Shown here: positions 15,289 through 38,569 of the stretch, one piece after another | How the letters are laid out: each line of letters opens with the position of its first letter | Position numbering within the stretch: position 1 is the first letter of the stretch | Assembly (NCBI GenBank): GCA_948466345.1 | Contig: CAOKAC010000001.1 | Span: 194,283-258,282 of the forward strand | Source of the DNA: an uncultured Clostridia bacterium | Lineage (GTDB): Bacteria; Bacillota; Clostridia; Oscillospirales; CAG-272 | DNA: 64,000 bases | Direction of reading: 5' to 3' | The notes under the pieces: model-generated | Database searches by the model: none | The model's input: only the letters and a program-made list of their open reading frames with translations | What the model was told of the DNA's origin: nothing | Program-made: the position numbers and the translations under genes

Positions 15289-15300
15289 TAAAAAAATTTT

Positions 15301-17284: not shown

Positions 17285-17292
17285 TTACTGCT

Positions 17293-17559: not shown

Positions 17560-17633
17560 TGCCGGCGGTATAAATTACAACAATAAAAAAACAAAATAAA
17601 CCGGCATGCCGGCATTGGAAACTGGAGAAAGCT

Positions 17634-19050: not shown

Positions 19051-21465
19051 TTATGTCTGAGATATTAGTACCCTTAGCAAGTATGAATCGTATGCGGTAA
19101 TTTCACCGTCCTGGTCTATATCTGCAGTGATCAGATAAAAATAATCTGCATTGTTTGCCGCGATTAAATAATGCTCCGTAGTATTTATATCGTGTTCAGC
19201 CAAATATTTCGCTAATAAAAACGCGTCAATCGGTGTAATTTCCCCATCACAATCAATATCTCCAAGCTTTAAGCCGCAATCGGTACAAGCTCCGTCCAAA
19301 AAATTATGTTTATCAAAATCAATTGCCCTATATCCCGCTTTGCAGCGACCGCAAATTGCCGGAGAAGAGCAGGTAGACGCTTTTCCGGAATGCCCTAAGG
19401 GATTTCCAAAATTGGATTCATAAGCATATCCGCAGCCTGCGCTGCTGCATCTGTAAATTTTATAGCTAGGATTTTTGCAACTTGCAAAAGCAGAATTCAT
19501 ATTGAATGTATGTGTGTGTTTTGTCTTATATTCTGTAATATTACCAGTATAACTCCTTGAAGCTTTCGGGTATATATAGGGAATGGTTTCGTCAGTATAT
19601 ATATTTAGATGATCTCCAAATGCTGCGTCGGATTTCAAAAAGTTATCGTTGCAAATCGTACCACTGAACTGATTGTTGGCGTCATGACTACGATTGGCGT
19701 CCCAGGTAACATCCATATGATACCAGTTCGTTCCCAGTCTTACCATATTCCATGCATGCCCATCTCTGGAAGGCTCTTGCCCGCTAACATATATGCAATC
19801 AATACCGAACATATCCATAAACAATTTAAAGGTTTGCGCATATGCGTCGCATACACAAATTCTGTTTTTCAGCGCACCCAAAATGGTATATGACTCCTTG
19901 GGAATCGTATCATTTGCATAGTTTTCTCTATCATAGGCAATGTTTTTAACCATCCAATCATGGATTTTTCTAATTTTTGCCCCATATGTATCATTTGCAG
20001 TGATTCCGCTCTCCCGAATAGCAGCAACTGCAAGGCTGTATATTTCCTGATCCTCTTTAGAAAGCTGGCTGACATTTTGCGTGTTCGAACGGTATACACC
20101 CACGATTGTGTTCATACCGAAAGGAATATCCAGAATATCCTGCAAATAATGGCCGGTATATTTACTGTAAGCGTCGCTAAATGCAGTCACCTCAGGCAAT
20201 ACCTTTTCACCCACCTCGTTCTGCGTAGTATAGAAAACGTATTTTCCCGTATAATCGATTACATTGCTTTCCGACTTAAATTTCACCAATCTTGAACAAT
20301 TATAAAAGGCGTAGTCCTCTATTCTTGCAATCTTACCATTAACATCAAAATATGATAAATTTACACATCTATCAAAAGCATGCTCACCTATAGTGGAAAT
20401 CGGTTTTACACATTCAAAGCCCTTTAAAGAACCGCAATCTCTAAAGGCATTTGCTTTTATTGAAACACTTGTACTGGAAGCGGTATTTCCAAATTTAACA
20501 TATGTCAAATTGCTGCAATTTTGAAATGCGCCATTTCCAACGCTTACAACGCTGTCAGGCAAATAAACTGTAGAAAGCGATGCGCAGGAACCAAAAGCCC
20601 TATCTGAAATTGTTGTAATGGAATTATTAAAAACAATCTGTTCTAAGCTTCTGCAATTATAAAAGGCTGAGTATCCGATAGTAGCAAGCTGTTCGGGCAG
20701 TTCAAGAAGCTTTAAGGCACGGCAATTTATAAAAGCAGTATTTCCAATAGAAGTGAGCGAATCAGGAAAATCAATATATTCTAATGACGAACACCCTTCA
20801 AAAGCACCTTCCTGAATCGTTTTGAGATTTTCCGAAAGATATATATTCGTTAGATTTGTGCATCCTTTAAAAGCATTTGCTTTTATGTTAAGGACGCTTT
20901 TTGGAACCTCAAAAACAGATATAGAAGAACAATTTTCAAATGTTCCAGTGGGTATTGAAGTTAAACTGCCTTTGATTTCTACTGTTTTCAAATTTGTACA
21001 TCCCGAAAAGCAATTAGCCCATCTATTTAAGTCCTTTTCTTTTGGAGAACATAAAATTTTTGCAGACTCCAGCTGCTTACAATTTTCAAAACCGGATCTT
21101 ATGATTTGAACGGATGCAGGAATTGTAACCGTTTTAATGGAGGTTCCTGAAAATGCTTGGTGGGAAATACTCCATACGGTGTCAGGAATTTGAACGGATA
21201 CAATATTTTTCATATTTTCAAAACCGTCAACGCGGCCAACAGGAATTCCGTTAATAGATTCCGGAATGACCAAATCAATATTTCCTTCCAGCGGATTACA
21301 ACCCCAGATGGATATCTCTGCTTCTTGGGTTTCAGGATTTATTACTTCGCTATATTTAAATACCACCTCATCCGCTGCTTTTACGGAATAAAGGCTTCCC
21401 AAGACATTAAGAAACGATACTACCATAGAAAAAATTATAAAAATGCTTATGATTCTTTTTTTCAT
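19051..21465 (-). CDS. Secreted BspA-type leucine-rich-repeat / transglutaminase-like cysteine-protease-core / Cys-rich / dockerin protein
   Basis: ORF trimmed to ATG 21465 (MKKRIISIF; AAGGAG 8 nt upstream). About 14 LRR_5-type repeats (IP.SV..I...AF..C..L). Cys-His-Asp core: CVCDAYAQ, DGHAWNMV, HMDVTWD. C-terminal dockerin: DIDCDGEITPID and DIDQDGEITAYD. Confidence 0.8.
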   Translation of the reverse strand: MKKRIISIFIIFSMVVSFLNVLGSLYSVKAADEVVFKYSEVINPETQEAEISIWGCNPLEGNIDLVIPESINGIPVGRVDGFENMKNIVSVQIPDTVWSISHQAFSGTSIKTVTIPASVQIIRSGFENCKQLESAKILCSPKEKDLNRWANCFSGCTNLKTVEIKGSLTSIPTGTFENCSSISVFEVPKSVLNIKANAFKGCTNLTNIYLSENLKTIQEGAFEGCSSLEYIDFPDSLTSIGNTAFINCRALKLLELPEQLATIGYSAFYNCRSLEQIVFNNSITTISDRAFGSCASLSTVYLPDSVVSVGNGAFQNCSNLTYVKFGNTASSTSVSIKANAFRDCGSLKGFECVKPISTIGEHAFDRCVNLSYFDVNGKIARIEDYAFYNCSRLVKFKSESNVIDYTGKYVFYTTQNEVGEKVLPEVTAFSDAYSKYTGHYLQDILDIPFGMNTIVGVYRSNTQNVSQLSKEDQEIYSLAVAAIRESGITANDTYGAKIRKIHDWMVKNIAYDRENYANDTIPKESYTILGALKNRICVCDAYAQTFKLFMDMFGIDCIYVSGQEPSRDGHAWNMVRLGTNWYHMDVTWDANRSHDANNQFSGTICNDNFLKSDAAFGDHLNIYTDETIPYIYPKASRSYTGNITEYKTKHTHTFNMNSAFASCKNPSYKIYRCSSAGCGYAYESNFGNPLGHSGKASTCSSPAICGRCKAGYRAIDFDKHNFLDGACTDCGLKLGDIDCDGEITPIDAFLLAKYLAEHDINTTEHYLIAANNADYFYLITADIDQDGEITAYDSYLLRVLISQT

Positions 21466-21623
21466 CTTGTAAGCTCCTTTTTTACACAAATTGCTATATA
21501 ACTTCCAATGCTTTGCACATTATTGCCGCTTTTCTCATTAATAGAAGCGGCCAAAAAGAAAAGCACCTCCTTTCTTCACCATCCTGCATAATCTGTTCCT
21601 TTCCTGACTTGTTCCGGAGTCCT

Positions 21624-21661: not shown

Positions 21662-22717
21662 TTAGCCTGTAATACCGGACCGCTCAATACCTTGAATAAT
21701 ATATTTTTGTGCAAAAACATAAATCAAAATAAGAGGAAGCAGAATAAGGATACCACAAGTGTTTGTAATCGCAGTGTTGTACATGCCCGCTGCAGCAGAT
21801 GTAATATTGAGGGATGTAGGAATCGCCACAATATCTGGCATCAGCGTAGGGCCTGCAGTGGTATAGAACAAATCTGTATAGAAATTGTCTGTCCATTGCC
21901 AGGAGAAGGCAAACATAAACACCGTGATCATCATAGGAACGGATAGAGGAATGATAATCTGAATGAAAGTACGGAACACACCGGCACCGTCCACATATGC
22001 AGATTCTTCCAATTCATCCGGCACACCCTTGAAGAACTGCCGCATCATAAAAATATACAGCCCGTTCTTAAAGGCCAAAGCAGTTGCGGACATAATCCAC
22101 AGCGGCCAATAGGTGTTGATCAGGTTAAGGGAAGGATTCTCCAATAACCGGAGCCAGTCTACCACGCCTCCGCCAAGCAAGTTTAGGATTCCTAAAATAT
22201 CAAAATATCGGAATTCCATAAACATAGAAAGCTGCAGTGTGGAATGAGGCACAATCATAGTAAAGATTACCAATAGGAACAGCAAATTGTTGAACTTGAA
22301 TTTAAACTTAGCAAATCCATAACCAACCAGACAGCAAACAAATGTCTGAATCAGGGCGCACGAACCGGCAAGAATAAAAGTATTCAACAATGCCGATAGG
22401 TATCCGTTTTCCATTATGATTGCCTTATAAATGTCCAGCGTTGGATATTTGGGAATCAGACGCACCGTTACATCTACAAAGTCCTCGGGACTCATAAAAG
22501 AGGATGCAATCTTAGAGTAAAACGGGAACAAAATTACATAACACACGCCAAGGAGCAGCAGGAATCGAAACAGGTACCAAACAACTCGCTTGAGGAAATA
22601 CAGGGACAGAAACTTTGATCTGAGCCGTTCGAGAAGAGGTGTGCGATCAAACTCGACGCGGATTTTGTTTTTGCTCTCTCTTTTTATTTTGGGAGCATTT
22701 GGGGCTTGATTAATCAT
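21662..22717 (-). CDS. Carbohydrate ABC transporter permease (MalG-like), second pair
   Basis: Track start is GTG 22723; ATG 22717 sits 9 nt from AAAGGAGG. EAA loop ESAYVDGAGVFRTFIQIIIP; about 50-aa basic N-terminal extension before TM1. Confidence 0.85.
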   Translation of the reverse strand: MINQAPNAPKIKRESKNKIRVEFDRTPLLERLRSKFLSLYFLKRVVWYLFRFLLLLGVCYVILFPFYSKIASSFMSPEDFVDVTVRLIPKYPTLDIYKAIIMENGYLSALLNTFILAGSCALIQTFVCCLVGYGFAKFKFKFNNLLFLLVIFTMIVPHSTLQLSMFMEFRYFDILGILNLLGGGVVDWLRLLENPSLNLINTYWPLWIMSATALAFKNGLYIFMMRQFFKGVPDELEESAYVDGAGVFRTFIQIIIPLSVPMMITVFMFAFSWQWTDNFYTDLFYTTAGPTLMPDIVAIPTSLNITSAAAGMYNTAITNTCGILILLPLILIYVFAQKYIIQGIERSGITG

Positions 22718-22735
22718 TTGCACAATCCTCCTTTC

Positions 22736-23725
22736 TTAGTCTTTCCTCTGGTAAAATACAAACAAACTGATAATTCCCGCAACAGCCGCTACAACAAGCA
22801 TTACTAGAAGGAAGTACATCCATGCCATGGCTGAACTGATTACATTGCCGTCACCCGCCGTTTTATACAGCTCGTTTACATAAGCCATGACAGAGTTATT
22901 ACCTGACGTAAATGAGTCGATAACCGTGTATATGGCATTCACCAAAATCATAGGAGAAATGATCGGCAGAGTAATTTTCCAGAAGGTTTCCCAGGACGAA
23001 GCACCCTCGATTTCACAGGACTCGTATATTGCAGGGGAAATTCCCTGCAGGCCCGCCAAGAAAATCAGCATCTGTACACCGGAACGGTTAACAATATCAA
23101 AAATATTGTTAACCAACTTGGTGACATTTGCAGCCAATTCGCTACCTACAATCATATTGTTAAACAAATTCTGCAAATCCGTCGCGGATATAATTTCAGC
23201 AACACTGGATCCCCCAGCGCCTCCCGTATCGATACCACCGGATTCAGAACCCATATAGTCACCCAGCATGTTGCCGGCATCAATATCTGCAATTAGTCCT
23301 GTGGTAAGCAAAACAGGAATAAAGAAAATCGCACGAAACGCTGCACGACCTGCCATTTTCTGGTTAAGCAAAAGGGCAATAAACAGAGAAAATAGAAGAA
23401 TTGCAGGAATCTCTACAATCAAGCCACCAAGACCGGTCCATAATGTTTCCACAAACTTTGCGTCGCTCAGCGCCGCTTGATAGTTTCCAAGACCTACCCA
23501 CACCAGTTCAAAACCGCCTCCGGTGATAATATCGATCTCATGGAAGCTATACTTAATAGAATCAAAAATAATCGGGATATAAATCAGAAGGAAGCCTAGC
23601 AGAAATGGGGCAATAAACAACCATCCGGCTCTTGATTTCTTTGCCTGCAGGCTAGCGCCGCGTTTTCTTTCTTTTACAACGCCAAGCTCCTGCTTGCCGG
23701 TCTTTGTTTTTTTCAAAAAAGCCAT
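22736..23725 (-). CDS. Sugar ABC transporter permease (MalF-like), second pair
   Basis: 329 aa; EAA loop ESCEIEGASSWETFWKITLP; 6 predicted TM; RBS GGAAGGAGG. Confidence 0.85.
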   Translation of the reverse strand: MAFLKKTKTGKQELGVVKERKRGASLQAKKSRAGWLFIAPFLLGFLLIYIPIIFDSIKYSFHEIDIITGGGFELVWVGLGNYQAALSDAKFVETLWTGLGGLIVEIPAILLFSLFIALLLNQKMAGRAAFRAIFFIPVLLTTGLIADIDAGNMLGDYMGSESGGIDTGGAGGSSVAEIISATDLQNLFNNMIVGSELAANVTKLVNNIFDIVNRSGVQMLIFLAGLQGISPAIYESCEIEGASSWETFWKITLPIISPMILVNAIYTVIDSFTSGNNSVMAYVNELYKTAGDGNVISSAMAWMYFLLVMLVVAAVAGIISLFVFYQRKD

Positions 23726-23740: not shown

Positions 23741-26704
23741 TTACCCGTCGATTCTGACGAAATTCAGCGCTTCCACTTCGTAAGTTTCTCCGCCGTATTC
23801 TACAGTAACGTCGTATGAATTATAGTTAATGATGAAGTTAGTGCCGTTTTCATATTCCACACGCACTACAGATCCGGTAACTGTTTCATATTTCTGCGTG
23901 TCTGCGCCGGAGGATGAACCGCCGGAAGTACTGCCGCTGCTGGTGCCAGAGTAATTAGGCGCTTGGCCAGTTCTCTGCGCTTCCAATTCTGCACGCAGTC
24001 TAAGCCGTTCTTCTTCAGCAGCTTTTTTCTCTTCGCTTTCCTTATCTACGGAAGAACCACCTTCTGTTTCATCCTTCTCTACACTACGCAAAGCTTCCAT
24101 AAACACGTGGTCTACAATCTGTGTAGTCTGCAAATCCCGCAGCGCCTCATTGACGATATCATAATATTTGATCATATCGTCCTTCCAGACATCATAAGCA
24201 ACCGAGTAAAACTTGTTGTATGTATCTGATTCTTTCAGGGCATTGGTATTTTGATAGCTCAAAACAAAGTAAAGACTTGCGCCATTTTCAATTGCTTTAA
24301 GCAAAGAATACTGTACATCGCCCTCCATGTTCAGCGCTCCACCTGTATAGTTTACATAGCCATGAAGCACCATGGATACAAAAGGAACCGATTCGCTAGC
24401 TCGCAGGAAATTGCTCGACTCTGTGGGAATATCCAAAATATGATTGGCATATGGCAGTACATATGCGTTTCCACCGTCTAACATAACGTCATATTTCTCA
24501 GAAAGTTTCTCCAGCAATTGCGTTGTAAATTTCTTAGAGTCTTCCCGGTTATATGGTTCATCTTCGTCAAAGTCGGAGTTCAAATCCTTTCCAAGTGTAG
24601 AAACAGAAATGGACTCAGGATCGTATTTGCTATAGTCCTTATCAAACTTATTATAGAAGTAATCATAGACAGACGAGGATATTGCCAGCGCAAAATCAGA
24701 TTCAAAGCTCTGCATTGCGGCATCGTATTCTCGTTTGGACATATAACGGTCATCAATAGACTTTACAAGATCTCGTTTTTCCCAGACACCGTCGAACCAA
24801 TCTTCGCTCTTCATATATGCAAAGTCAAAGTCAGGATAAACACCAAAATTGTTTTCCTTGCTGCTGGCCAACAGCTTTTTAAATCCTGATTTACCACCCA
24901 GTTCCTTCACCCAAGAAAGCTTCGAGGGATAGGTATTATCGAGACCGCCGTTATAGCTTCCTGTCAAGCGGAAGTTGATATTGGAAACACCTTCCTCTGA
25001 AAGCTCTTTATAAATTGTTTCTATGTCGTCAAAGGTGGTCAGTGCAGTATCTACCGTTACAGGGAAAGACAGCACACGCTCTGTCGTTTTAATGGAGCCA
25101 AAGGTCTCCAGATAAAGAGGCAAATCCTCCGAAATATTGTCTGCACTCAATGGAGTGATAATTTTGTTATCCTCCAGATAATCTCGATATGCAGCTGCCA
25201 TTCCCACATAGGACGGCTCGTAAAATTCTTCCTTACCTGCCGCAGAGGCTTTAGCCTCATCTGTCAGAAGCACATAGTTGATGGTATAAGATCCAGAATA
25301 CTTCCGGTCTGTAGTTACCGTCCAGGAGGCGTTGCTTCCAACGGAAATAGAATCTGCCAGATTATATGTGTCAGAGGGACGGGGATTAAAGCTTGCATAA
25401 ACATTGTTATAGCTGTGCAATTTACCGCCATGCTCACTCATAAGGTTTGCCATGGAATCTCCTTCAGAGATAATGGCAAGATAGCCTCTCCTATAGGAGT
25501 CCGTCCCATCACTGGACTGTGCAGGATTTGTTGCTGCTTCATCCACACCTGATTTGTCTTCCACTACGCCGAACACAGGCATTCGCATCGTTTCAGAGTG
25601 CTGACCAGAAATCGTATGGTACGCATAATCCGCGCCGTACATCTGTCCAGCAACATTATAGTTTGTACCAAACACATCTTCAAATCGAATCAATGTACCA
25701 GAGCCATCCGGAATAAAGGTATATCCAGTATTCTGAGAACTACCACACCCCATAAAGGGAAGCATGGTGATTGATTTCAAGACAAAGTTGGCCTCATCAA
25801 ATTGAATACCGTTTGCAGGAAGACGAGCTTGTATTCCCGTATCTGTAAAGGTGTACTCAATCGCCATTTTAAAGTTGGCAGGCGCTTTATCTGTATTGGT
25901 ATAGTCGCAATCCGCATGGTCCTGATCCATTTCCTCAAAAGTATAGGTAGGACAGTATGCTTTGATAATGGTCTCCAGATCTTCCAATTCCTTAGATACG
26001 ATCTCGACATCACAAATATATACTGCAAACTGCTTGGTAATCGGGAAAGCTGCTTGGATTTCCTTTACGTTACGCTCTGTCAGACTGACATCAGAGGTAT
26101 CATAAAGGGTGTAGAAAGACAGCAGTTTTTCTTTATATATCCCTTCCGGGATTTTATCCAAAATCATAGACTCAAAACGAGACTTGGAAATCATACGGGG
26201 AACCAGACGGGTTGTCATCAATTCTCCTACCGTATATTCCACACGCAGACCATTTTTAATATTTTTAAAGCTGATCTGTCCACGCAGCGCGGCTTCCTTG
26301 TAGGAATACATGGTTTTTTCCACGCTGTTTTCTTCGTATGTTACTGCAAGCTGAGACAACAAACGCTCCTTTGTAGATGCAGACGCCCAGTTATAGCCAG
26401 CAGAAACATCATACGGATTGGAGAATAAAGTATCGCCTGTTTTGGTATCCACAAATGCAACTTCACCTGTAAATTCTTCTATCCACAGTTGATAATCGCC
26501 CTGTTCCCTAGCAAGCACCATGTCCTTTAGTTTTGCCTCGGGTGAGGTATATGCTTTCGTAATATAGTTAATGACAGGATTTCCCTCTTCATCCACCTTG
26601 TCTTCATATGCTGCGGCAGTATCGATTACAGACGTATATCCTGTTACGGCGACAGCACCAAGCACTGTGATCAGGGACAGGAAGACAGATAATATTCTTT
26701 TCAT
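23741..26704 (-). CDS. Large secreted protein, DUF5696-like (function unknown)
   Basis: 987 aa; N-terminal signal/anchor MKRILSVFLSLITVLGAVAVTGY. Near the C-terminus: charged coiled segment (EEKKAAEEERLRLRAELEAQR), Ser/Gly linker, small terminal beta domain. Family assignment is from memory of similar loci, not searched. Confidence 0.55.
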   Translation of the reverse strand: MKRILSVFLSLITVLGAVAVTGYTSVIDTAAAYEDKVDEEGNPVINYITKAYTSPEAKLKDMVLAREQGDYQLWIEEFTGEVAFVDTKTGDTLFSNPYDVSAGYNWASASTKERLLSQLAVTYEENSVEKTMYSYKEAALRGQISFKNIKNGLRVEYTVGELMTTRLVPRMISKSRFESMILDKIPEGIYKEKLLSFYTLYDTSDVSLTERNVKEIQAAFPITKQFAVYICDVEIVSKELEDLETIIKAYCPTYTFEEMDQDHADCDYTNTDKAPANFKMAIEYTFTDTGIQARLPANGIQFDEANFVLKSITMLPFMGCGSSQNTGYTFIPDGSGTLIRFEDVFGTNYNVAGQMYGADYAYHTISGQHSETMRMPVFGVVEDKSGVDEAATNPAQSSDGTDSYRRGYLAIISEGDSMANLMSEHGGKLHSYNNVYASFNPRPSDTYNLADSISVGSNASWTVTTDRKYSGSYTINYVLLTDEAKASAAGKEEFYEPSYVGMAAAYRDYLEDNKIITPLSADNISEDLPLYLETFGSIKTTERVLSFPVTVDTALTTFDDIETIYKELSEEGVSNINFRLTGSYNGGLDNTYPSKLSWVKELGGKSGFKKLLASSKENNFGVYPDFDFAYMKSEDWFDGVWEKRDLVKSIDDRYMSKREYDAAMQSFESDFALAISSSVYDYFYNKFDKDYSKYDPESISVSTLGKDLNSDFDEDEPYNREDSKKFTTQLLEKLSEKYDVMLDGGNAYVLPYANHILDIPTESSNFLRASESVPFVSMVLHGYVNYTGGALNMEGDVQYSLLKAIENGASLYFVLSYQNTNALKESDTYNKFYSVAYDVWKDDMIKYYDIVNEALRDLQTTQIVDHVFMEALRSVEKDETEGGSSVDKESEEKKAAEEERLRLRAELEAQRTGQAPNYSGTSSGSTSGGSSSGADTQKYETVTGSVVRVEYENGTNFIINYNSYDVTVEYGGETYEVEALNFVRIDG

Positions 26705-26725: not shown

Positions 26726-28861
26726 CTACATCCTATATTGTAGTTCATCCACAATACTAAAGATGAAGCTAATAATTTTGGTGATCAGCGTTGAGAAGAG
26801 CACCGCAATAAACATAATGAATATCATGCCGACAATCGTTACGGCTGCAATCAGCACGCTCTTTCCAAAGGAATAATCGTGGGTAATCATCATACCGAAG
26901 AATATCAAAATACCCACCCACAAGAACGCAACGGTGTTGATAATAGAAATAAAACTTACTTCTTCTGATACCAATATGTTAGAAAGCAGCGTACTTGGAA
27001 TAAGCAAAAGCGGCAACGGAACAAGTGCGTAGCAGCTTGCTGTAAACACATTGGCAAAGCTGCCTTCCCCGTCAAACAAAGTAGTGAGACACCAGTTTGC
27101 AACCACCCACAAAAGTAGTGGCATAACCACGGAAACTAGCGTCATAAAGATATTAGCTGTATTTGCATCCTGTCCGCCAAAAATATATCCTGTACCCACC
27201 GTCTGATAGAAGAACGCGAGAACCGTTATAACCAAAATTACGAATGCACTGCGTACACTACCTCGTTTTTCGTGTTTCAAATCCCAGAATCCGTCAAAGG
27301 GATGGAAAAGTATATGGAAAGCGTACAGTAGTTCCTCACGGATATTTTTCTGTCCAACCTTCATGGCGGCAAGTCGGTTACGCTTTGCCGCATATCCAAA
27401 GAATTTCACTACCAGGACTGCAATAAAGATTACAACAACTGGAATTAAGATAAAGAATTTGGATATCCAGTCTTTTCGAATTTCTTTGTAAGAATCGGAA
27501 TATCCGCCTCTATCATAGGCCGCTTTATAATAATCCATAGCATCTTCAAAACTGCCTTCACGATACAAAGCCTTTGCAATACCTACGTATGCTACATCAA
27601 AGTTGTTGTTCCGTTTGAGAATCTCTCTCCAGTCACTGATTTCCGCATCGTAGTTGCGTTCGTTTTGGTTCTTCAGTGCGTTGATCAAAATATCACCATA
27701 CTCTGTCCTTCTGTACACAGTAAAGCTCATATTGACCTTATCTAAAAGAAGCATTTTATCGCCCTGGTATACAACTGCTTCAATACTACCAATAGATCCT
27801 AACTGGTTTCCGTTGTCACCAAAAGCAAATAGCAGGTTTCCTTCATCATCATACGTAAACACCTTGGAACGCTTTTCATCAATAATAGACCAGGTTCCCT
27901 GCGGCCCTACGGCAGCATCGATAATTACAGAAGCACCTTTAATTGCACTTGTTTCCGAAGTAGATACTTTTACTTCGCCAGAGGGAGGATAAAATCCATT
28001 TCTTCGCATAATGTCCGTGCCGGACACATTCAACTTTTTAACAGGAGCAAAGGTGCCTGCCTTGCTTTTATTGTTAATCTCCTGCTGCTGCGTATCTGCA
28101 TCTATGGAGGATGTTGTTACATACAGAAAATTGTTCTCGTCAATGGTAATGTTATTATATTCCGTAGAAACAATGGTTTCCTCGTCATTCTTGCCCCATT
28201 TTCTCCAAAAGGCTTGCCACCGTGAAAGCGTTGTTTTCTGTGCGCCGATATACCCATAGAATTCGCCGCTGTCACCCATGACGATAATACCTTCAAACGT
28301 AGTGGAAGATACCACAAACATTCTGCCGTATTCGTCTACTGCTACTGCTACCGGACGATAAATCGCATTTTCTGCTATCAAAGCACTCTGCGGCTTGCCG
28401 ACTGTCTTCACAAAATTTCCATCCCGGTCAAAAATGACAATACGACTGTTTTCTGAATCACAGGCATAAATAAAATCTGCAGTAATAAATACGCCGGATA
28501 CACCGGAAAAAGAGTCAGGAACCCCTTGCTCGTTTACAAAAGAACGGATGGTAAATTTACTTTTATAATATTTATCCAGCACATAAATGGCGTTTTGCTT
28601 TCCATCTACAATATATACATTTCCGTCTTCGTCCACTTCCAGATCGCGGGGATCTTCCAAAATAATGGAATTACCGAAAACGTCTGTCCCCATAAAATCA
28701 GTATCTACAACTTCATCCGGTACATACGCATCTGGTGAATACAATACAAAACCACTGGAGGAATATGTATAAGTCGTATACGGTGTTGCAGCAGATGCAG
28801 TCGCAGGCAGCACACACAGCAATGCCATCAGGACCAGGAGTATTTTTATTGATTTTTTCAT
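26726..28861 (-). CDS. Secreted NHL-type beta-propeller / TPR-like / C-terminal Yip1-family membrane domain protein
   Basis: 711 aa; signal peptide ending ATASA. NHL-like blades: DEDGNVYIVDGKQNAIYVLD, ACDSENSRIVIFDRDGNF, VDEYGRMFVV, DDEGNLLFAFGD. TPR-like AKALYREGSFEDAMDYYKAAY. One TM (aa about 467-489), then about 5 TM with a Yip1-like FHPFDGFWDLK entry. Confidence 0.65.
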   Translation of the reverse strand: MKKSIKILLVLMALLCVLPATASAATPYTTYTYSSSGFVLYSPDAYVPDEVVDTDFMGTDVFGNSIILEDPRDLEVDEDGNVYIVDGKQNAIYVLDKYYKSKFTIRSFVNEQGVPDSFSGVSGVFITADFIYACDSENSRIVIFDRDGNFVKTVGKPQSALIAENAIYRPVAVAVDEYGRMFVVSSTTFEGIIVMGDSGEFYGYIGAQKTTLSRWQAFWRKWGKNDEETIVSTEYNNITIDENNFLYVTTSSIDADTQQQEINNKSKAGTFAPVKKLNVSGTDIMRRNGFYPPSGEVKVSTSETSAIKGASVIIDAAVGPQGTWSIIDEKRSKVFTYDDEGNLLFAFGDNGNQLGSIGSIEAVVYQGDKMLLLDKVNMSFTVYRRTEYGDILINALKNQNERNYDAEISDWREILKRNNNFDVAYVGIAKALYREGSFEDAMDYYKAAYDRGGYSDSYKEIRKDWISKFFILIPVVVIFIAVLVVKFFGYAAKRNRLAAMKVGQKNIREELLYAFHILFHPFDGFWDLKHEKRGSVRSAFVILVITVLAFFYQTVGTGYIFGGQDANTANIFMTLVSVVMPLLLWVVANWCLTTLFDGEGSFANVFTASCYALVPLPLLLIPSTLLSNILVSEEVSFISIINTVAFLWVGILIFFGMMITHDYSFGKSVLIAAVTIVGMIFIMFIAVLFSTLITKIISFIFSIVDELQYRM

Positions 28862-28871: not shown

Positions 28872-29744
28872 TTAGTCTTTCATACCGCTCGAACCCATTG
28901 TCTCAATGATTCTGCTTTGTGAAACTACAAATACCACGATGGGCACAATCATCATAACAACAGTTGCGGCGGCTGACGCGCCGGAACGAACGATACCTTC
29001 GAGCAATACCTGGTTGATTGTGAAGTTCAGCGTTTTTAGCTGTTCACTATATATATATATATTTTGTCCAGTGTTCCAAAGTCCCTGGAAGGAGTAGATA
29101 ATCAATGTCAGCCACGCTGGTTTTACCATAGGCATGGCAATAGACCAAAATGTTCTGAATTCTCCCGCGCCGTCCAGCCGTGCACTTTCCAAAATTTCCG
29201 TAGACACGTTGGAATCAATAAATTGCTTCATTAAATAGAGGCCAAGCGGCGTCGCAAGAGCCGGAACAATAATAGCCCAATATGAATCCAACATTCCCAG
29301 CTTTGAAATAATAACGAAAATCATAAGCTGTGCTACTTCCGAGTTAATCATCAAGGATTTCTGAATCACTTGGAAGGTAAATTTGTGTCCGGGGAATGGG
29401 AGCTTAGACAGTGCATATGCACACATGGAAGAAAGAATCAAGTTCCCAAAGGTTCCACACACAGTAATAAATACCGTATTGAAGAGATACCGGGAAAATG
29501 GTACCCATGAGGTGTTAAGCAGATTAAATAAATCGGAAAAGTTTTCAAAAGACGGATTCGTAACATACATTCTGGGAGGAAAGTAAAACAATTCGTCCAA
29601 AGGCTTCAAAGACTGAATAATCAGATAGTACATAGGGAAAAACATGACCACGCCCAACAGGAGCATGAAAATAGTAACGCCAAAATCCCCGCCAATGGAC
29701 CGGCTGAGCACCACCCGATGCTTTCTTGTTCTTAATTTTTTCAT
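28872..29744 (-). CDS. Carbohydrate ABC transporter permease (MalG-like), first pair
   Basis: 290 aa; EAA loop ESARLDGAGEFRTFWSIAMP; start overlaps the upstream stop (TGATG, 1-nt overlap). Confidence 0.88.
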   Translation of the reverse strand: MKKLRTRKHRVVLSRSIGGDFGVTIFMLLLGVVMFFPMYYLIIQSLKPLDELFYFPPRMYVTNPSFENFSDLFNLLNTSWVPFSRYLFNTVFITVCGTFGNLILSSMCAYALSKLPFPGHKFTFQVIQKSLMINSEVAQLMIFVIISKLGMLDSYWAIIVPALATPLGLYLMKQFIDSNVSTEILESARLDGAGEFRTFWSIAMPMVKPAWLTLIIYSFQGLWNTGQNIYIYSEQLKTLNFTINQVLLEGIVRSGASAAATVVMMIVPIVVFVVSQSRIIETMGSSGMKD

Positions 29745-30688
29745 CAGCTTTTACCCACCTTTGAAAGCATCTTCTGTACCAGCATGTTTGATCCGATCAT
29801 CAGGAAGAAAAGTACCATGGAAATCGCACATGCATATCCGAATTCCCACCGAGTGGTACCATACTCAGCCAAATGGTGGGAAAGCGTGTATCCCACATAG
29901 TCTGTAGGAATACCCCCGCACAAGGTTGTCACAATCGCACCAAATCCAAAGGAGTTGGTGATCGACATTATAGCACCGAACAAAAGCTGCGGTTTCATGC
30001 TTGGTAGCGTGATATACCAAAGTTCCTGCCACCGGTTTGTAATCCCGTCCACAGCGCCCGCTTCCAATTGGCTGCGGTCCAGTCCCTGGAAACCTGCGAT
30101 AAAGGAAAGAAACGCGGTGCCCAATGACATCCACAGAGCAATAAAAATAACGGTTGGCATAATCATTTTTACATCTTGGAAAAATAAAATCGGAGTGTCA
30201 ATAATACCCCAGTTCATCAGCCATCCGTTCAAAAGACCGTAGGAGTCACCGGAAAAGATGTAGTTGAATACCACATAGATACCGCCGCAGAGAGAAGGCG
30301 CATAAAAGATTAATGTTACAAACGCACGCACCTTCGGCGACAGCTCGTTGATAAACCATGCTACTATAAAGGACAGAATATAAGACCCAGGCCCTACTGT
30401 GATAGCGAAAATCATAGTATTTTTCACTGCCGTGATAAATAAATCATCGTTAATAAACAAGTTGATGTAGTTATCAAGGCCTACCCAGTTCGGCATCTGG
30501 AGCAGGTTGAAGTCTGTAAAGCTTACAAGTATACCGGAAAAAACCGGGATAACCGTTATCAAAGTAAACAACAGTACATACGGCGCAATCATCACATAGC
30601 CGATTTTATACTGTTTCATAAGATGCCAAGTCCATTGGAGCCTTGTTTTGTCTCCATGCGCTATGACTTCTTTTTCTTTCTTAGCCAT
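29744..30688 (-). CDS. Sugar ABC transporter permease (MalF-like), first pair
   Basis: 314 aa; EAA loop EAGAVDGITNRWQELWYITLP; 6 predicted TM. Confidence 0.88.
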   Translation of the reverse strand: MAKKEKEVIAHGDKTRLQWTWHLMKQYKIGYVMIAPYVLLFTLITVIPVFSGILVSFTDFNLLQMPNWVGLDNYINLFINDDLFITAVKNTMIFAITVGPGSYILSFIVAWFINELSPKVRAFVTLIFYAPSLCGGIYVVFNYIFSGDSYGLLNGWLMNWGIIDTPILFFQDVKMIMPTVIFIALWMSLGTAFLSFIAGFQGLDRSQLEAGAVDGITNRWQELWYITLPSMKPQLLFGAIMSITNSFGFGAIVTTLCGGIPTDYVGYTLSHHLAEYGTTRWEFGYACAISMVLFFLMIGSNMLVQKMLSKVGKS

Positions 30689-30778: not shown

Positions 30779-33700
30779 TCAGCTTTCTTCGAGCCACTCT
30801 TTATAGGAGAGGTCTGTCTTGCCGTTCTTGACATCTGCCTTCCAGGATTCATAATTGTTCACAGAAACGCCATTCTCTTCCATCCAATCTCTAAAGGAAT
30901 ATTCATACTCCTCAGAATACTGCATGCAGGAGTTGTCGTCCTGTTCGGTAATATCATAGGTTTCATTCCAGTATTCGCGCCACTGGCCAAAATCATCCAT
31001 TTCCATATATGCGCGGATAGCCTGCCACTCATCATCCACCATAAGCTTAAATTCCTTGCGCTTACGAGTGATTTCCCGGTTCATAACAGGTGTGTATTCC
31101 TGCAGCATATTTGATGCGTCCGCATTTTCCGAATAGCCGCGGTTTACCACAAAGTTTGCATACCGGTCAATAAAGTAACTGCCCGGATAGGAAGGAACAG
31201 AATAGGCAGACTCCAGACATGTTAAAAGCGTCTTATATTCAGAATCGGTCCATGGCTGCTCTGCAAGCGCCTCCAGATTGGCAAGCTGCTGCTTTGCAGA
31301 GGGACCCAAAAGGGCTACCATTTCTTCTGAATAATCTACTGCATAATCTTTTGATCCGATGTAATCCAACAGATCCCATGCAGCTTCCAAGTCTCTGCAG
31401 TCTTTGGTCATATACACACCATCTGCACCAGCCTCTACTGAACGGTTAATCTCACCTGTTTCCTCGTTTAAAACGCCCGGTGTCTGATAGAAGGTCCACA
31501 GGTTGCTGATTTCTGGAGCAAATACCACCAGTGTATTATAAAGACTATAATCGGCCAAAATGATCGGCATTTCACCAGATTTAAAACGGTTGGCCGCATC
31601 GAACTGTTTTGTCAGAGAGTATTGTTGATACAAGCTATTGATAAAGTCAAATGCATCCACCACTTCGTCAGAATCAAATGCACTGCGCATTCCTTCATCT
31701 TCCCAAAGGTCTCCGCCGTTCTGATACACAAAGGTTCTGTAATTTGCCTGGAATCCGATTTCCATATTATTAAATTGAAGCGTTGGGATCAGCGCAATTA
31801 CGTCATCCCAAGTTTGGGGAATTTCCACGCCTAACTGTTGTATTACATCGTTACGGACAAACATTACGGAAAAGCCTTGCCCAAAGGGAATTGCATAAGT
31901 CTTTCCATATAGAGACAACCGATTCAATGAGCTTTCCGCAAACCGGCTGACAACCTCGTCAAAGGTATCAAAATCATTCAGAGGCAGTATAGCGCCACGA
32001 ATTGCCATCTCGGTAGGATCGCCCTGGTCCAAAACAATGTCGGGACCTACTCCCGCCAAAATAGACGGCAAAATTACGTTTTGACCGGTCAGTTTAACAT
32101 TTGCTCCGATTCCGGTTTTCTGCGTGAAGCCACTGTTGATCAAGTTTTTCATAACCTGCGCTGTATCACGCCCCTTGGAAGTCCACGCCTCCAAAGTCAC
32201 ATTCGCCTCGGCTTCATCCGTTCCTTCTACACCAATTGTATTGTAGTCTGTGTAAAAGCTGGCGACAAATTTCTTAAATTCAAATACAAAGGAAGACCAT
32301 CCGCCATCTTTTCCCTGGGGCAACTCGCTGCCGACCGGTTGGATTTGAATGTAGTCTACCTGCAGATACTGCATACTCACTTCAGACAGCCATGTACCCA
32401 AAGAGGAGATCCAGGTTTTCAGTTCTCCCATATTGGCTGCGATTTCTTTTTCATCGGTAACCATCTTTTCAATTACCAATGCGGCCTGTTCCAATGTAGA
32501 GGTGTTTTCTGAACGCCCTCCGTTCATTTCCAATATATAATCTACCAGCTGGCTAAGCACGCCCTGCTGTCTGCCAAGGTCTTTGATTACATTTGGCATA
32601 ATCCGGCTAAATCCATAATCCCGGTTGGGGTCTGGATCAACGCCGGTCAGCTTAACAAGTTCCAAATAGTCGTCATTCAAGCTGTCTACCGTTTCAGCAA
32701 CCTGACGTAAAATGTCGGTAAATGCACCTTTGGTCGCTTCAAATTCCAGCGTGTAGGTTTCGCCTTCTTCAAAATAAAATTGGAAGGTAGTACTGCCGTC
32801 GTTCAGCGCGGCGGACTGCCACTTCTGATTATAAGGGAACTGACAATTCTTTGCTTCAATAAAAGGATATTCTCCGTTAATCTTCAGACTTCTGGAGGTA
32901 TACATTCCCTTTACAGTCGCCTGTTCGTACCGCAGTGCTATTTCATACAAGCCGGAGGCAGGACACTCAAATGTGTATCGGATCCACTGTCCGGAGTTGA
33001 TCCATTTTTCCCCACCCATAGTGTTTCTGTATATCAAAGCTGGGTCCTGCGGGCTGGTTCCGGCAGATGTACGGTCATAAATTGGGTAAATTGTATAGTT
33101 GGACACAGAATCAGGCATTTCCGCTTCAATCTTGATAGGGTCTGCATCGGCTGGCTCGTAACCCTTGTCCTTATATTCCTGCAGTACTTCCTCATATGTA
33201 GCAGGATCTTCATATGTATAAAAGGTAAAGTTTTCAATGGCAATAGGCTCCCGGATTCCTTCCAAGGTAATCACGTTTTCGCCGGCTTCCATATAAAACT
33301 CCAACGGCACTGTGTAGTACCCGTCTGGATCCTTCACATCATACACATCCCAAACAAAATCCACCTTTGCAGAAGGATTCAGTTCATTACCGATAGAGTC
33401 TTTTACAAACGCAGTTTCTCTATCGTCGCTCTCATACTCGTATACCCACGTTTTGGTAATACGCAGAAAACGTGCTTCATCATACGGTGCCTTGCCGTTC
33501 AGCGCAAAAAGACGTTCGATATCGTTTGTGCTGTCGCTGGTGGCACTATAATTGAGACGAATCGCATAAAAACCGCTTTTCGGAACATTGAATTTCCAGG
33601 AAATGCTTCCGTTTGCTCCTACAATCAAGCAGTCCCTACCCTGCCAGGTAGTCTTTTCCACTTCAGCATTATCCGTCTTTTCAAAGTAATCCTGTGCGTC

Positions 33701-33940
33701 AACTACAAACTCCTCGCCGGTGCGGGGCGTATCCTCGTATTCATACTTTGATTTATAATTCTCATAGGTCAGCAGCGTATATTCATCCTGAAGCTGCTTG
33801 AGCGTTACACCGGTAGAGGTGCCTTTTCCATCATTCGCCGCATCATCGGTATCTTGCGCAAATACCGGCACTGCGGATCCAATCAGCATCAGCGCACCCA
33901 GCGAGAACGCCAGAAGCTTTTTGGCCTTTCCTGTTTTCAT
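30779..33940 (-). CDS. Giant extracellular solute-binding protein (family-1 SBP core) with two N-terminal CBM6/35-like modules
   Basis: 1053 aa; type-I signal peptide (..SAVPVFA/QD), no lipobox Cys. Two similar modules: SWKFNVPKSGFYAIRLNYSA...LFALNGK and IRYTFECPASGLYEIALRYEQ...SLKINGE. C-terminal about 500 aa resemble sugar SBPs (LEAWTSKG..., YGKTYAIPFG, WDDVIAL). Confidence 0.75.
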   Translation of the reverse strand: MKTGKAKKLLAFSLGALMLIGSAVPVFAQDTDDAANDGKGTSTGVTLKQLQDEYTLLTYENYKSKYEYEDTPRTGEEFVVDAQDYFEKTDNAEVEKTTWQGRDCLIVGANGSISWKFNVPKSGFYAIRLNYSATSDSTNDIERLFALNGKAPYDEARFLRITKTWVYEYESDDRETAFVKDSIGNELNPSAKVDFVWDVYDVKDPDGYYTVPLEFYMEAGENVITLEGIREPIAIENFTFYTYEDPATYEEVLQEYKDKGYEPADADPIKIEAEMPDSVSNYTIYPIYDRTSAGTSPQDPALIYRNTMGGEKWINSGQWIRYTFECPASGLYEIALRYEQATVKGMYTSRSLKINGEYPFIEAKNCQFPYNQKWQSAALNDGSTTFQFYFEEGETYTLEFEATKGAFTDILRQVAETVDSLNDDYLELVKLTGVDPDPNRDYGFSRIMPNVIKDLGRQQGVLSQLVDYILEMNGGRSENTSTLEQAALVIEKMVTDEKEIAANMGELKTWISSLGTWLSEVSMQYLQVDYIQIQPVGSELPQGKDGGWSSFVFEFKKFVASFYTDYNTIGVEGTDEAEANVTLEAWTSKGRDTAQVMKNLINSGFTQKTGIGANVKLTGQNVILPSILAGVGPDIVLDQGDPTEMAIRGAILPLNDFDTFDEVVSRFAESSLNRLSLYGKTYAIPFGQGFSVMFVRNDVIQQLGVEIPQTWDDVIALIPTLQFNNMEIGFQANYRTFVYQNGGDLWEDEGMRSAFDSDEVVDAFDFINSLYQQYSLTKQFDAANRFKSGEMPIILADYSLYNTLVVFAPEISNLWTFYQTPGVLNEETGEINRSVEAGADGVYMTKDCRDLEAAWDLLDYIGSKDYAVDYSEEMVALLGPSAKQQLANLEALAEQPWTDSEYKTLLTCLESAYSVPSYPGSYFIDRYANFVVNRGYSENADASNMLQEYTPVMNREITRKRKEFKLMVDDEWQAIRAYMEMDDFGQWREYWNETYDITEQDDNSCMQYSEEYEYSFRDWMEENGVSVNNYESWKADVKNGKTDLSYKEWLEES

Positions 33941-34097
33941 ATGAAATCCTCCTGAAAGTGTTGCCCGCAGGCGGTCTGCCAGCCCGGGCTAAACAAGCTG
34001 CAAACGCAGCCAAGCAGTTGCCACAACCTGTTTTTATCTGGCCGTAACAAAACCACTGGGACAAAAATTCCCCTTTTGCCCCATTTGTATACAATAT

Positions 34098-34126
34098 ATG
34101 ATAACACAAGCCCGATTCCATGTCAA
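34098..34126 (-). promoter_or_regulatory. Sigma-A promoter of the 7-gene operon
   Basis: Minus strand TTGACA-17 nt-TATCAT with TGt extended -10; about 150-nt leader to the SBP ATG. Confidence 0.6.
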
Positions 34127-35475: not shown

Positions 35476-35652
35476 ACCAGCCTCCTGTTTTTGTTTATAT
35501 AATAGTATTGTACACAATCGTGCAAAAACTGTCAATCTTTTTGTTGTTTCCAGAAATTACGCTATTGTCCCTCAAATAATCGTATAATCTTGTTTTTTCA
35601 CGAAAAATGTTGTATTATGATATATAAAAACTTCTATAAGGAAGGTACATCC

Positions 35653-38486: not shown

Positions 38487-38569
38487 GTAACGGTTAATGC
38501 TGCTTGCCTCATAATGAAACTTTTTTGTATCATTATGTTACGCCTTGGTGCAGCAGATTGGAGGCTTCT

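Follow-up and report, generated by a model that had tools for sequence, protein, structure and literature searches.

The minus-strand gene at positions 26726–28861 of the window (by which we mean the whole stretch of DNA analysed, 64,000 nucleotides) encodes a protein of 711 aa that comprises a signal peptide, an NHL propeller, a TPR-like stack, a transmembrane (TM) helix and a Yip1 domain, and that is encoded inside a carbohydrate ABC-importer operon. The domain architecture and the operon membership, as first observed, are confirmed; the importer context in particular is supported by synteny in ~80 loci, by pairing with a DUF5696 gene and by the likely Caldicellulosiruptor bescii ortholog, which is induced on xylan along with its operon. 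This protein, hereafter propeller-Yip1, is probably an accessory part of a fibre-uptake machine in plant-fibre-degrading Bacillota. More specifically, we assign a probability of about 0.5 to the reading that it is an integral-membrane accessory or scaffold subunit of a Bacillota cassette for glycan capture, trimming and import, combining docking in the membrane, a platform above it and trimming at import.

Domain architecture and predicted topology

The open reading frame begins with an ATG at 28861, upstream of which lies an AAGGAGG Shine-Dalgarno sequence, and ends with a stop codon at 26726–26728; all features described below are likewise on the minus strand. Each of the motifs quoted in the original prediction was found in the translation: DGNVYIVD at residues 79–86, NSRIVIFDRDGNF at 138–150, YGRMFVV at 178–184, GNLLFAFGD at 341–349 and FHPFDGFWDLK at 519–529. 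The AlphaFold2 (AF2) model of the protein has a pLDDT of 93.3 and a pTM of 0.85.

Residues 1–24 (28790–28861; MKKSIKILLVLMALLCVLPATASA, followed by AT) form a predicted signal peptide of the SPase I type, without a lipobox and with cleavage between ASA and AT; its cleavable appearance, noted originally, is backed by hydropathy and the AXA site, and the model places a helix at residues 2–17. Residues ~26–386 (27704–28786) are predicted to form a six-bladed NHL beta-propeller, as judged by phmmer, AF2, Foldseek and conservation. The Pfam NHL profile (PF01436) itself is borderline, at 20.6 bits vs. a cut-off of 20 and with all individual stretches below threshold, and it is present in many homologs of the protein. 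The NHL assignment is carried by phmmer matches to solved NHL domains (E = 4.8e-14 for Thin, over 4 stretches, and E = 8e-8 for TRIM71), together with Foldseek matches to TRIM71, Thin, Brat and TRIM2 (E from 1e-15 to 1e-10, target TM-score 0.71–0.78); all 50 Foldseek matches listed are propeller-type folds. In the model, six blade-like strand groups span residues 30–385 with pLDDT mostly >90, the ring is closed by a conserved N-terminal PYxxYTY strand, and a conserved helical insert, WRxxxTxEQxxR, is carried at ~214–235.

The propeller is followed by a TPR-like stack at residues 387–468 (27458–27703), predicted to lie just outside the membrane. A TPR-like segment had been proposed from the outset and is retained, but as about five helices (387–400, 404–417, 422–434, 438–447 and 451–468 in the model) rather than a helical pair. 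The TPR_16 match is weak in this protein (E = 0.0073, 17.2 bits vs. a cut-off of 32.7) and the segment matches TPR proteins in the PDB at E = 0.007–0.6; many homologs match TPR_1, TPR_2 or TPR_16 (PF00515, PF07719, PF13432). The first TM helix, residues ~469–500 (27362–27457), is indicated by hydropathy, by AF2 and by the boundary at which the gene is split in some genomes. Hydropathy and AF2 then place a basic cytoplasmic linker with two amphipathic helices at residues ~501–535 (27257–27361), in which the most conserved motif of the family, H-x-x-F-H-P-F-D-G-F-W-D-L-K-H-E-K-R-G, is located.

The five-TM core of the Yip1 domain occupies residues 536–711 (26729–27256), based on Pfam, conservation and AF2. 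The match to PF04893 (64.8 bits vs. a cut-off of 28.6, E = 1.2e-17) extends over residues 515–684 and positions 1–170 of the 173 in the profile; a scan of the whole genome, in which propeller-Yip1 scored 69.5 bits, identified it as the only Yip1 gene. The helices are modelled at 536–556, 571–595, 602–627, 632–661 and 665–710 with pLDDT >90, the long C-terminal one projecting outward, and near-invariant positions are N589, W590, T593, G598, G600, Y611, P615, E634, H661 and E706. The Yip1 assignment, with one TM helix and then a block of five, is thus in agreement with Pfam, hydropathy and the model.

The ectodomain (residues 26–468) is acidic, and hydropathy and the positive-inside rule single out a loop of 51 residues (488–538) that contains 10 K/R. 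Because this basic loop should lie inside the cell, followed by five TM helices and a C-terminus outside, the propeller is predicted to face outward, held just above the membrane, a placement that the AF2 model also favors. The original prediction had named lack of HMM support for NHL or Yip1 and a cytoplasmic propeller as the outcomes that would count against it; the HMM match is clear for Yip1 and borderline for NHL, where phmmer and Foldseek give stronger matches, and the propeller is predicted to be extracellular, as originally proposed.

The importer cassette and its distribution

The cassette in the window starts with a giant substrate-binding protein (SBP) of 1053 aa (30779–33940), which has an N-terminal CBM-like region and an SBP_bac_8-type fold and lacks a lipobox. 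It is followed by a first pair of CUT1 permeases, recognized by profile match and synteny (28872–30688; PermA at 29744–30688, PermB at 28872–29744), by propeller-Yip1, by the DUF5696 gene (23741–26704; Pfam E = 8.5e-156), whose 987-aa product is predicted to be secreted or N-terminally anchored, and by a second CUT1 pair, assigned likewise by profile match and synteny (21662–23725; PermC at 22736–23725, PermD at 21662–22723), which is the one kept in a four-gene core described below. The permeases are BPD_transp_1 (MalF/MalG-type) importer permeases, and one orphan OB_MalK-type ATPase is encoded elsewhere in the genome. The originally noted gaps of 10 nt and 21 nt around propeller-Yip1 are correct, but the second permease pair is not its direct downstream neighbor, given that the DUF5696 gene intervenes. 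Upstream of the SBP gene, a promoter (TTGACA-17-TG-TATCAT, 34098–34126) was identified by consensus match only, at 11/12 positions; promoter and terminator counts across the operon region did not exceed those in shuffled sequence, the single 11/12 promoter being noteworthy.

The AF2 model of the DUF5696 protein (pLDDT 84) retrieved GH129 first in Foldseek (E = 3e-27, target TM-score ~0.7), then GH101, GH36 and GH31. Searches of the PDB with the single sequence and with a profile produced nothing significant, so that the link to GH129/GH101 rests solely on fold comparison; the protein is predicted to fold like these glycosidases. It has an N-terminal hydrophobic segment only, without a wall anchor, and a literature search for ‘DUF5696’ returned no papers. 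Many orthologous giant SBPs have an apparent uncleaved N-terminal TM anchor, and four-gene cassettes occur that lack a giant SBP altogether, so the suggestion that propeller-Yip1 is a scaffold for an anchor-less SBP does not hold as a general role. The C-terminal tail of the giant SBP in the window carries three [SN][FY]x[DE]W repeats. This tail was also considered as a docking peptide for the TPR stack and rejected as a general solution, distant orthologs ending after the SBP fold.

The propeller-Yip1 family comprises >3,157 matches, all of ~705–715 aa; at E ≤ 1e-30, 1,375 clusters at 50% identity were counted. It occurs in at least 559 species genomes, a count obtained with the linker motif from 4 aligned sequences as search pattern and covering relatives of >52% identity only, and is spread across at least 15 Bacillota families, among them gut Oscillospirales, Butyrivibrio, Paenibacillus, Thermoanaerobacterium and Caldicellulosiruptor. 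Of 20 distant loci, 18 keep the full order (giant SBP, PermA, PermB, propeller-Yip1, DUF5696, PermC, PermD) for as much of the cassette as the contig covers; three of the 18 are circularly permuted, and two are truncated where the contig or region ends. The other two loci are four-gene cores of one genome (G054), consisting of propeller-Yip1, DUF5696, PermC and PermD, with an ordinary SBP added in one of the two. Among 80 closer loci, the complete order was found in 59 and a partial one, mostly at a contig end, in the remaining 21; no DUF5696 match was detected in two of these 21. Propeller-Yip1 adjoins DUF5696 in all but one of the 20 distant loci, the permuted cassettes among them; the exception is a four-gene core (locus L025) in which PermC and PermD separate the two genes. 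Up to three paralogous cassettes were found per genome.

In a sample of 401 genomes, DUF5696 is present in 32, of which 31 also have a propeller-Yip1 of this family. In the thirty-second (G350), DUF5696 is immediately preceded by a divergent 6-bladed-propeller-Yip1 gene, which weakly matches SGL and carries a different type of propeller on the same Yip1 base. HlyD-like and MacB_PCD/FtsX genes are located near these two genes in G350. The tightest partners of propeller-Yip1 are DUF5696 and PermC/D. Some genomes, among them those of Paenibacillus taichungensis and Thermoanaerobacterium, encode the propeller-TPR-TM part and the Yip1 domain by two separate genes that overlap by 4–25 nt, with the break precisely after the first TM helix and before the Yip1 domain; the architecture occurs both as one fused gene and as a translationally coupled pair. 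In 17 of the 20 distant loci, conservation is higher in the Yip1 half than in the propeller half (42–45% vs. 30–32%, for instance), which fits a conserved docking module with a substrate-facing head.

Around the cassette, the window contains a gene for a CE4 deacetylase next to it, one for a GH31 enzyme ~4.5 kb off and one for a GDSL esterase ~10 kb off, and with these genes only, a substrate can be assigned to this genome no more than weakly. In relatives, the cassette is flanked by GH43, GH51, GH26 and GH115 genes, LacI or AraC regulators and lipoprotein SBPs, and in cultured relatives it is found within xylan and other hemicellulose loci. In C. bescii, the operon is written xloEFG-X-GH129-axoFGE-xynFED..., where the GH129-like gene is Athe_0178 and X is Athe_0177, an ‘NHL repeat-containing protein’ whose FPKM rose from 58 on cellobiose to 1,898 on xylan (log2 fold change 4.37, ~20-fold, adjusted P = 7e-5) (PMC8579813). 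Athe_0177 is co-transcribed with xloEFG, GH129 and axoFGE in the XynR-controlled xylan degradation operon, and XynR binds the operator of the locus with a Kd of 161 nM (PMC12285236). The C. bescii and C. kronotskyensis proteins, of 716 aa, show ~31% full-length identity to the protein in the window and the same gene order, and Athe_0177 is likely to be its ortholog; that Athe_0177 is ACM59329.1 we infer from annotation and synteny rather than by matching the sequence to the locus tag directly. Unlike the window, the C. bescii locus has a lipoprotein SBP (AxoE) and xylanases. The papers on the C. bescii xylan locus consulted here give Athe_0177 no function and do not mention a Yip1 half or membrane topology, and in the literature on Caldicellulosiruptor and NHL repeats we found nothing in main texts, the link to the locus coming from supplementary tables.

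Proposed role and alternatives

Under the accessory-subunit reading, the Yip1 domain and the cytoplasmic HPFDGFWDLK helix would attach to the permease dimer or dimers within the membrane, as YknW does with YknXYZ, and the propeller and TPR stack would form a binding platform above the membrane. This platform could position the GH129-like enzyme, plus the binding protein or a glycan chain, over the mouth of the transporter, such that trimmed oligosaccharides would be made at the site of import; energy would come from the one orphan MalK/MsmX-type ATPase of the genome, whose gene lies away from the cassette. From operon membership and co-occurrence, it is not possible to say whether the protein touches the permeases, DUF5696, the SBP or a glycan. 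A more far-reaching version is tentative: Yip1 might be the membrane hub of a Gram-positive ‘utilisome’, physically joining one or two CUT1 importers, the GH129-like glycosidase and the CBM-bearing SBP in one complex, with the propeller/TPR head organizing the exoproteins above the mouth of the permease.

Alternatively, the propeller could be a lectin-like module that binds glycans and hands hemicellulose chains or oligosaccharides to the SBP or a permease, with Yip1 only as its anchor; in this reading, which we consider rather doubtful, it would do in Gram-positive cells what surface glycan-binding proteins do in the PULs of Bacteroidota. Its outward orientation and the faster divergence of the ectodomain compared to the Yip1 half, as for substrate-specific heads, are consistent with such binding, and so are the multiplicity of paralogous cassettes (up to three in a genome), the exchange of the propeller type on the same Yip1 base in G350, and Foldseek matches to Bacteroides surface propellers (3hrp, 3dsm and BtuG), the latter at a target TM-score of only ~0.48. 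Against it, conservation in the propeller is mostly that of the structural NHL repeat motif, beyond which no conserved aromatic or polar patch was identified and nothing points to a binding site; the usual ligands of TPR stacks are proteins; and a strongly conserved five-TM domain with a cytoplasmic motif would be needless as an anchor, single TM anchors sufficing elsewhere in the cassette. Glycan binding by the propeller would in any case be compatible with the accessory-subunit reading. We think it unlikely that propeller-Yip1 serves the GH129-like enzyme only, as its receptor, maturation or retention factor and without direct contact to the permeases. The pairing with DUF5696 in 32/32 genomes, the adjacency of the genes in 19/20 distant loci and the N-terminal hydrophobic segment of DUF5696, with no wall anchor, would suit this possibility, but PermC/D co-occur equally strictly in every locus examined, so that the data do not separate DUF5696 from PermC/D as the partner, and the conserved cytoplasmic motif would have no obvious role in binding an exoenzyme.

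In PknD of Mycobacterium tuberculosis, the sensor is an extracellular NHL propeller proposed to detect a ligand, and the PknD propeller is a weak phmmer match here (E = 0.0095). By comparison, propeller-Yip1 might be a sensor or regulatory subunit in which the propeller detects an extracellular glycan and Yip1 gates the importer or signals to the cytoplasm, where the most conserved stretch of the protein lies. We hold this to be improbable, given that the cytoplasmic part has only ~50 residues and no recognizable output domain (kinase, HTH or cyclase), and that relatives have LacI, AraC or two-component regulators of their own (PMC8579813). Least plausible of all is an enzymatic propeller, that is, a lyase, esterase or lactonase (compare SMP-30/gluconolactonase, Vgb and PAL) acting on hemicellulose decorations, which we regard as very improbable. 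NCBI names some orthologs ‘SMP-30/gluconolactonase/LRE family’ or ‘gluconolactonase’, Foldseek matches virginiamycin B lyase (E = 1e-9) and the G350 partner weakly matches SGL, but Pfam SGL (PF08450) is not matched by this protein at E ≤ 0.01 and the best matches are non-catalytic NHL domains. Among 124 sequences, we found no invariant His, no metal-ligand set and no catalytic constellation outside the motif; the invariant or near-invariant Asp and Asn belong to the repeated NHL motif.

Comparison with known systems and significance

Literature on ‘YIP1 family protein’ yielded nothing about sugar uptake. By analogy, the nearest precedent for the role of propeller-Yip1 would be YknW of Bacillus. 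YknW is not known to have a signal peptide, a propeller or other ectodomain, a TPR segment or an extra TM helix. It is a Yip1-family protein reported to make contact with YknX and YknYZ and in this way to modulate how the YknXYZ ABC transporter assembles (PMC4887032). Both are polytopic Yip1-family membrane proteins encoded inside an ABC-transporter operon, but YknW serves a MacB-type exporter in peptide-toxin resistance, whereas the partners encoded here are a glycosidase and permeases of CUT1 importers; they do not include a MacB-type exporter and its membrane-fusion protein, HlyD-like and MacB-like genes occurring only at G350.

The propellers of TRIM71/LIN-41, Thin/TRIM32, Brat and TRIM2/3 are the best matches by sequence and fold (six-bladed NHL, target TM-score 0.75–0.78), although identity is just 15–19% and localization and partners differ, the eukaryotic propellers being parts of E3 ligases that bind RNA or proteins in the cytoplasm. 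With eukaryotic Yip1/YIPF proteins, whose N-terminal domain is cytosolic and which function in trafficking between ER and Golgi, the protein shares PF04893 and five TM helices that follow a cytoplasmic N-terminal segment and lead to an exoplasmic C-terminus; here, in contrast, an extra TM helix and a large extracellular head come before the bacterial Yip1 domain, and we know of no bacterial counterpart of the vesicle-trafficking machinery (Rab, Yif1 interaction) of the eukaryotic members. In the Sus systems of Bacteroidota, SusCD is proven to assemble physically with a glycan-binding protein and a glycosidase of the cell surface. The likeness to such a ‘utilisome’ is that genes for a transporter, a surface glycosidase and a binding module are grouped in one locus and that paralogous loci have diversified by substrate. 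The parts, however, are unrelated, with a TonB-dependent transporter in an outer membrane there and an ABC importer here, for which assembly is only hypothesized.

CUT1 sugar importers are taught as consisting of three parts: an SBP, two permeases and an ATPase. To this scheme the cassette adds a surface glycosidase and what is probably a fourth subunit, a polytopic protein whose large head is extracellular. The family is common and can be tested in genetically tractable hosts, and because the gene sits in the main xylan degradation operon of the biofuel model C. bescii, its role bears on the engineering of hemicellulose uptake. Such a role would give a first function, alongside YknW, to a large branch of bacterial Yip1 proteins and, if the hub reading is true, the prokaryotic Yip1 fold would be a general assembly adaptor for ABC importers and exporters.

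Architecture and topology of the propeller-Yip1 protein

The propeller-Yip1 protein is encoded by a single ORF (window 26726-28861, minus strand; ATG at 28861, stop codon at 26726-26728) that has an AAGGAGG ribosome-binding site upstream of the ATG and is separated by 10 nt from the stop codon of the upstream permease gene and by 21 nt from the start of the next gene. Every peptide motif quoted in the original prediction was found in the translated ORF. The Pfam Yip1 profile (PF04893) was covered almost end to end by residues 515-684 (64.8 bits vs. a cut-off of 28.6), and the NHL match was borderline (20.6 bits vs. a cut-off of 20). Sequence comparison of the N-terminal half with solved structures identified the NHL domains of Thin/TRIM32 (E = 4.8e-14, four stretches) and TRIM71 (E = 8e-8), as well as the PknD sensor (E = 0.0095). 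The AlphaFold2 model, with an input alignment of 124 diverse homologs, was very confident (mean pLDDT 93.3, pTM 0.85) and consists of an N-terminal signal-peptide helix, six blade-like strand groups (residues 30-385), five stacked helices that make up the TPR-like part (residues 387-468), a long TM helix (residues 472-500), two short cytoplasmic helices (residues 507-530) and five more membrane helices, the last being a 46-residue C-terminal helix. The nearest folds found by Foldseek were the NHL propellers of TRIM71, Thin, Brat and TRIM2/3 (E from 1e-15 to 1e-10, target TM-score 0.71-0.78). The TPR-like segment, also part of the prediction, gave a weak HMM match in the protein itself (E = 0.007); its support comes from the model, together with TPR_1, TPR_2 and TPR_16 matches in many homologs.

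Hydropathy and charge analysis revealed a signal-peptidase site (ASA|AT), an acidic ectodomain of 443 residues and 10 Lys/Arg in the 51-residue loop after the first TM helix, which together put the propeller on the outer face of the membrane and the beginning of the Yip1 domain in the cytoplasm. Because the Yip1 HMM match, the NHL sequence matches and the predicted fold bear out the NHL and Yip1 assignments, and the propeller is extracellular rather than cytoplasmic, the fusion of an external propeller to a Yip1-type membrane domain that had been claimed from the sequence is confirmed.

A word-indexed search, which saturated, returned more than 3,157 matches to the protein; among the 120 matches listed, all except one truncated 517-aa entry were ~700-716 aa long and aligned over their full length, and most had no name, those named being mainly 'YIP1 family protein'. 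An exhaustive search of 50%-identity representatives yielded 1,375 clusters at E ≤ 1e-30, the best 150 of which were nearly all full-length fusions. When one genome per species was scanned, at least 559 species genomes matched, the majority of them MAGs of animal-gut Clostridia or Oscillospiraceae. The nearest named relative is Candidatus Avispirillum faecium (84% identity), and the window's own genome (2.0 Mb) has one copy of the gene, also its sole Yip1 gene. A complete bacterial cassette with 59% identity is filed under the archaeon 'Methanocorpusculum sp.' (JAGARL010000319.1), most likely a bacterial contig mis-binned in a Methanocorpusculum MAG.

Conserved gene order and obligate pairing with DUF5696

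The key evidence on propeller-Yip1 is its gene context. The predicted placement between two permease pairs holds on the upstream side, where the gene adjoins a permease, but the downstream neighbour is a DUF5696 gene (987 aa; window 23741-26704, minus strand), and the second pair lies only beyond it. Comparison of the window's operon proteins with 20 distant loci by tblastn (26-36% identity) showed that the order giant SBP-PermA-PermB-propeller-Yip1-DUF5696-PermC-PermD, in which PermA/B and PermC/D are CUT1 permease pairs, was kept in 18/20 as far as the contig reached; 3 of these 18 were circularly permuted and 2 were truncated where the contig or region ended, and the remaining 2/20 were four-gene cores. 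The order was complete in 59 of the 80 closer loci and partial in 21, most of which ended at a contig end and two of which had no DUF5696 match.

Among 401 sampled genomes of the phylum, 31 carried a strong propeller-Yip1 homolog and 32 carried DUF5696, the 31 being a subset of the 32. The sole exception (genome G350) encodes a divergent six-bladed propeller (DUF5128- or SGL-like) joined to Yip1, directly upstream of DUF5696, so that the pairing is found in 32/32 genomes, spread over ~15 families, a single genome having as many as three cassettes; co-occurrence and adjacency in this sample are obligate. The divergent cassette of the exception (G350:C60:203001-223000, 7334-18381) runs propeller-Yip1, DUF5696, a 295-aa ORF, an HlyD-like membrane-fusion protein, a MacB_PCD/FtsX permease, PermC, PermD, GH16 and a LuxR-type regulator, and echoes YknWXYZ in that the Yip1 protein stands alongside YknX- and YknZ-like genes. 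Genome G054 has two cassettes cut down to propeller-Yip1, DUF5696, PermC and PermD, in either order and without the giant SBP and PermA/B (G054:C36, 4779-19998, and G054:C46, 151-7050); therefore, the obligate partners are DUF5696 and PermC/D, not the giant SBP. Downstream of the former cassette lie genes for an ordinary SBP_bac_1 protein, a Laminin_G_3 protein, GH43 and GH115, and an AraC-type regulator is encoded on its upstream side.

Nine of the 401 genomes encode the protein in two genes that overlap by 4-25 nt. The first product (~490-510 aa) runs from the signal peptide through the propeller and TPR stack to a single TM helix and ends in a short basic tail; the second (~205-220 aa) is the Yip1 domain, beginning with a conserved LxYxxHxxFHPFxGFWDLK segment. 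The fusion junction falls precisely where the first TM helix gives way to the Yip1 domain. In Paenibacillus taichungensis, a fused and a split cassette coexist in the same genome, a natural Rosetta-stone pair for joint action of the propeller and Yip1 proteins. The Yip1 half was better conserved than the propeller half in 17/20 distant loci (e.g., 42-45% vs. 30-32%), and the most divergent cassette proteins were DUF5696 and the SBP, a pattern that fits a putative conserved membrane-docking module bearing substrate-facing heads.

Several features of the window vary or lie outside the conserved cassette. The final ~45 residues of the giant SBP (window 30779-30910, minus strand) contain three [SN][FY]x[DE]W-type repeats (SFRDW, NYESW and SYKEW), a tail that is missing in distant orthologs, which stop directly after the SBP fold. 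In the 5' leader, a terminator-like hairpin of 11 pairs with a U-tract (34057-34083, minus strand) follows a near-consensus promoter (34098-34126) and precedes the start codon of the SBP gene (33940); it may serve the cassette as an attenuator of transcription or a site of antitermination. The genes outside the cassette encode an LRR_5, transglutaminase-core and type I dockerin exoprotein (19051-21489, minus strand), a CE4 polysaccharide deacetylase (34519-35535, minus strand), a GH31 glycosidase (38504-40837, plus strand) and a 1002-aa GDSL-type esterase (8680-11688, plus strand); of the 80 closer loci, 3 have the deacetylase alongside the cassette and 1 has the LRR/dockerin gene.

Xylan co-expression of the likely ortholog and GH129-like fold of DUF5696

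Exact-sequence look-up named cultured hosts of the cassette: the fused form (716 aa) is present in Caldicellulosiruptor kronotskyensis (ADQ47214.1) and C. bescii (ACM59329.1), and the split form in Paenibacillus odorifer, P. taichungensis, Thermoanaerobacterium saccharolyticum and Butyrivibrio hungatei. Flanking genes in these hosts and in other relatives include GH43+CBM4_9, GH51+CBM4_9, GH26+CBM35 and GH115; regulators of the LacI or AraC type are encoded there too, as is a further lipoprotein SBP. The C. bescii cassette makes up the leading half of the 'xylan degradation locus' (Athe_0174-0185), whose operon is described as xloEFG-X-GH129-axoFGE-xynFED-xyn10A-xynXB; the gene labelled X is Athe_0177, annotated as an 'NHL repeat-containing protein' and assigned no role (PMC8579813). 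From annotation and position, rather than a direct locus-tag match, we infer that Athe_0177 is the 716-aa C. bescii propeller-Yip1. In RNA-seq, its FPKM was 58 on cellobiose, 131 on xylose, 225 on glucose, 543 on Avicel and 1,898 on xylan (log2 4.37 for xylan vs. cellobiose, adjusted P = 7e-5), and its expression tracked that of the neighbouring transporter and GH129 genes (PMC8579813). XynR binds an operator upstream of Athe_0174 with a Kd of 161 nM (PMC12285236).

Comparison of DUF5696 with the PDB by sequence gave no significant match. Its AlphaFold2 model (pLDDT 84, pTM 0.81) superposes on GH129, namely the Zobellia 3,6-anhydro-D-galactosidase (ZgGH129) and Bifidobacterium NagBb (E from 3e-27 to 4e-21, target TM-score ~0.7), followed in Foldseek by GH101, GH36 and GH31, each of these families having a (beta/alpha)8 barrel. 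These four families are retaining alpha-glycosidases. The acidic residues E533, D627, D711, D796 and E806 are invariant or near-invariant and fall within the alternating strand/helix range of the model. Because its only hydrophobic segment is N-terminal and an obvious AXA site is lacking, DUF5696 may be a signal-anchored surface glycosidase.

Proposed role at the importer

We propose that the Yip1 domain and the conserved cytoplasmic helix would dock on the CUT1 permease dimer(s), in analogy to the Yip1-family protein YknW, which is reported to dock likewise on the YknXYZ ABC transporter (PMC4887032). The propeller and TPR head would then position the GH129-like enzyme above the transporter and might also hold the binding protein or a glycan; with the enzyme held there, oligosaccharides would thus be trimmed at the site of import. 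The cassette operon has no ATPase gene, and a single MalK/MsmX-type ATPase gene, far from the cassette in the window's own genome (G000:C2:153884-154054, OB_MalK domain, 370-aa frame), probably provides the ATPase shared by the CUT1 permeases. Firmicute CUT1 systems commonly share an ATPase, and this orphan gene fits such an arrangement.

Other readings assign the head or the whole protein a different part. The propeller may be a lectin-like glycan binder, or propeller-Yip1 may be a partner of DUF5696 only, or else a sensor or gate; the originally suggested substrate-handling or gating component is possible. An enzymatic propeller is the least likely, given that its conserved residues belong to the NHL repeat motif, with neither an invariant His nor a metal-ligand set among them. 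The further suggestion of a scaffold for an SBP without a lipid anchor does not extend to a general role, because distant giant SBPs mostly have a seemingly uncleaved N-terminal membrane anchor, the four-gene cassettes have no giant SBP, and the repeat-bearing SBP tail of the window's genome is lineage-specific.

The family is already in databases under generic names, its C. bescii member being listed without a function, and our literature search found no discussion of a propeller-Yip1 fusion or of a CUT1 importer with a fourth membrane subunit. We rate propeller-Yip1 as a Yip1-type ABC-transporter accessory protein that, compared to the known one, adds an extracellular head, goes with importers and is paired with a glycosidase, which are the new features here. 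The finding matters because the family is widespread, occurs in a biotechnologically important operon and is testable in tractable hosts.
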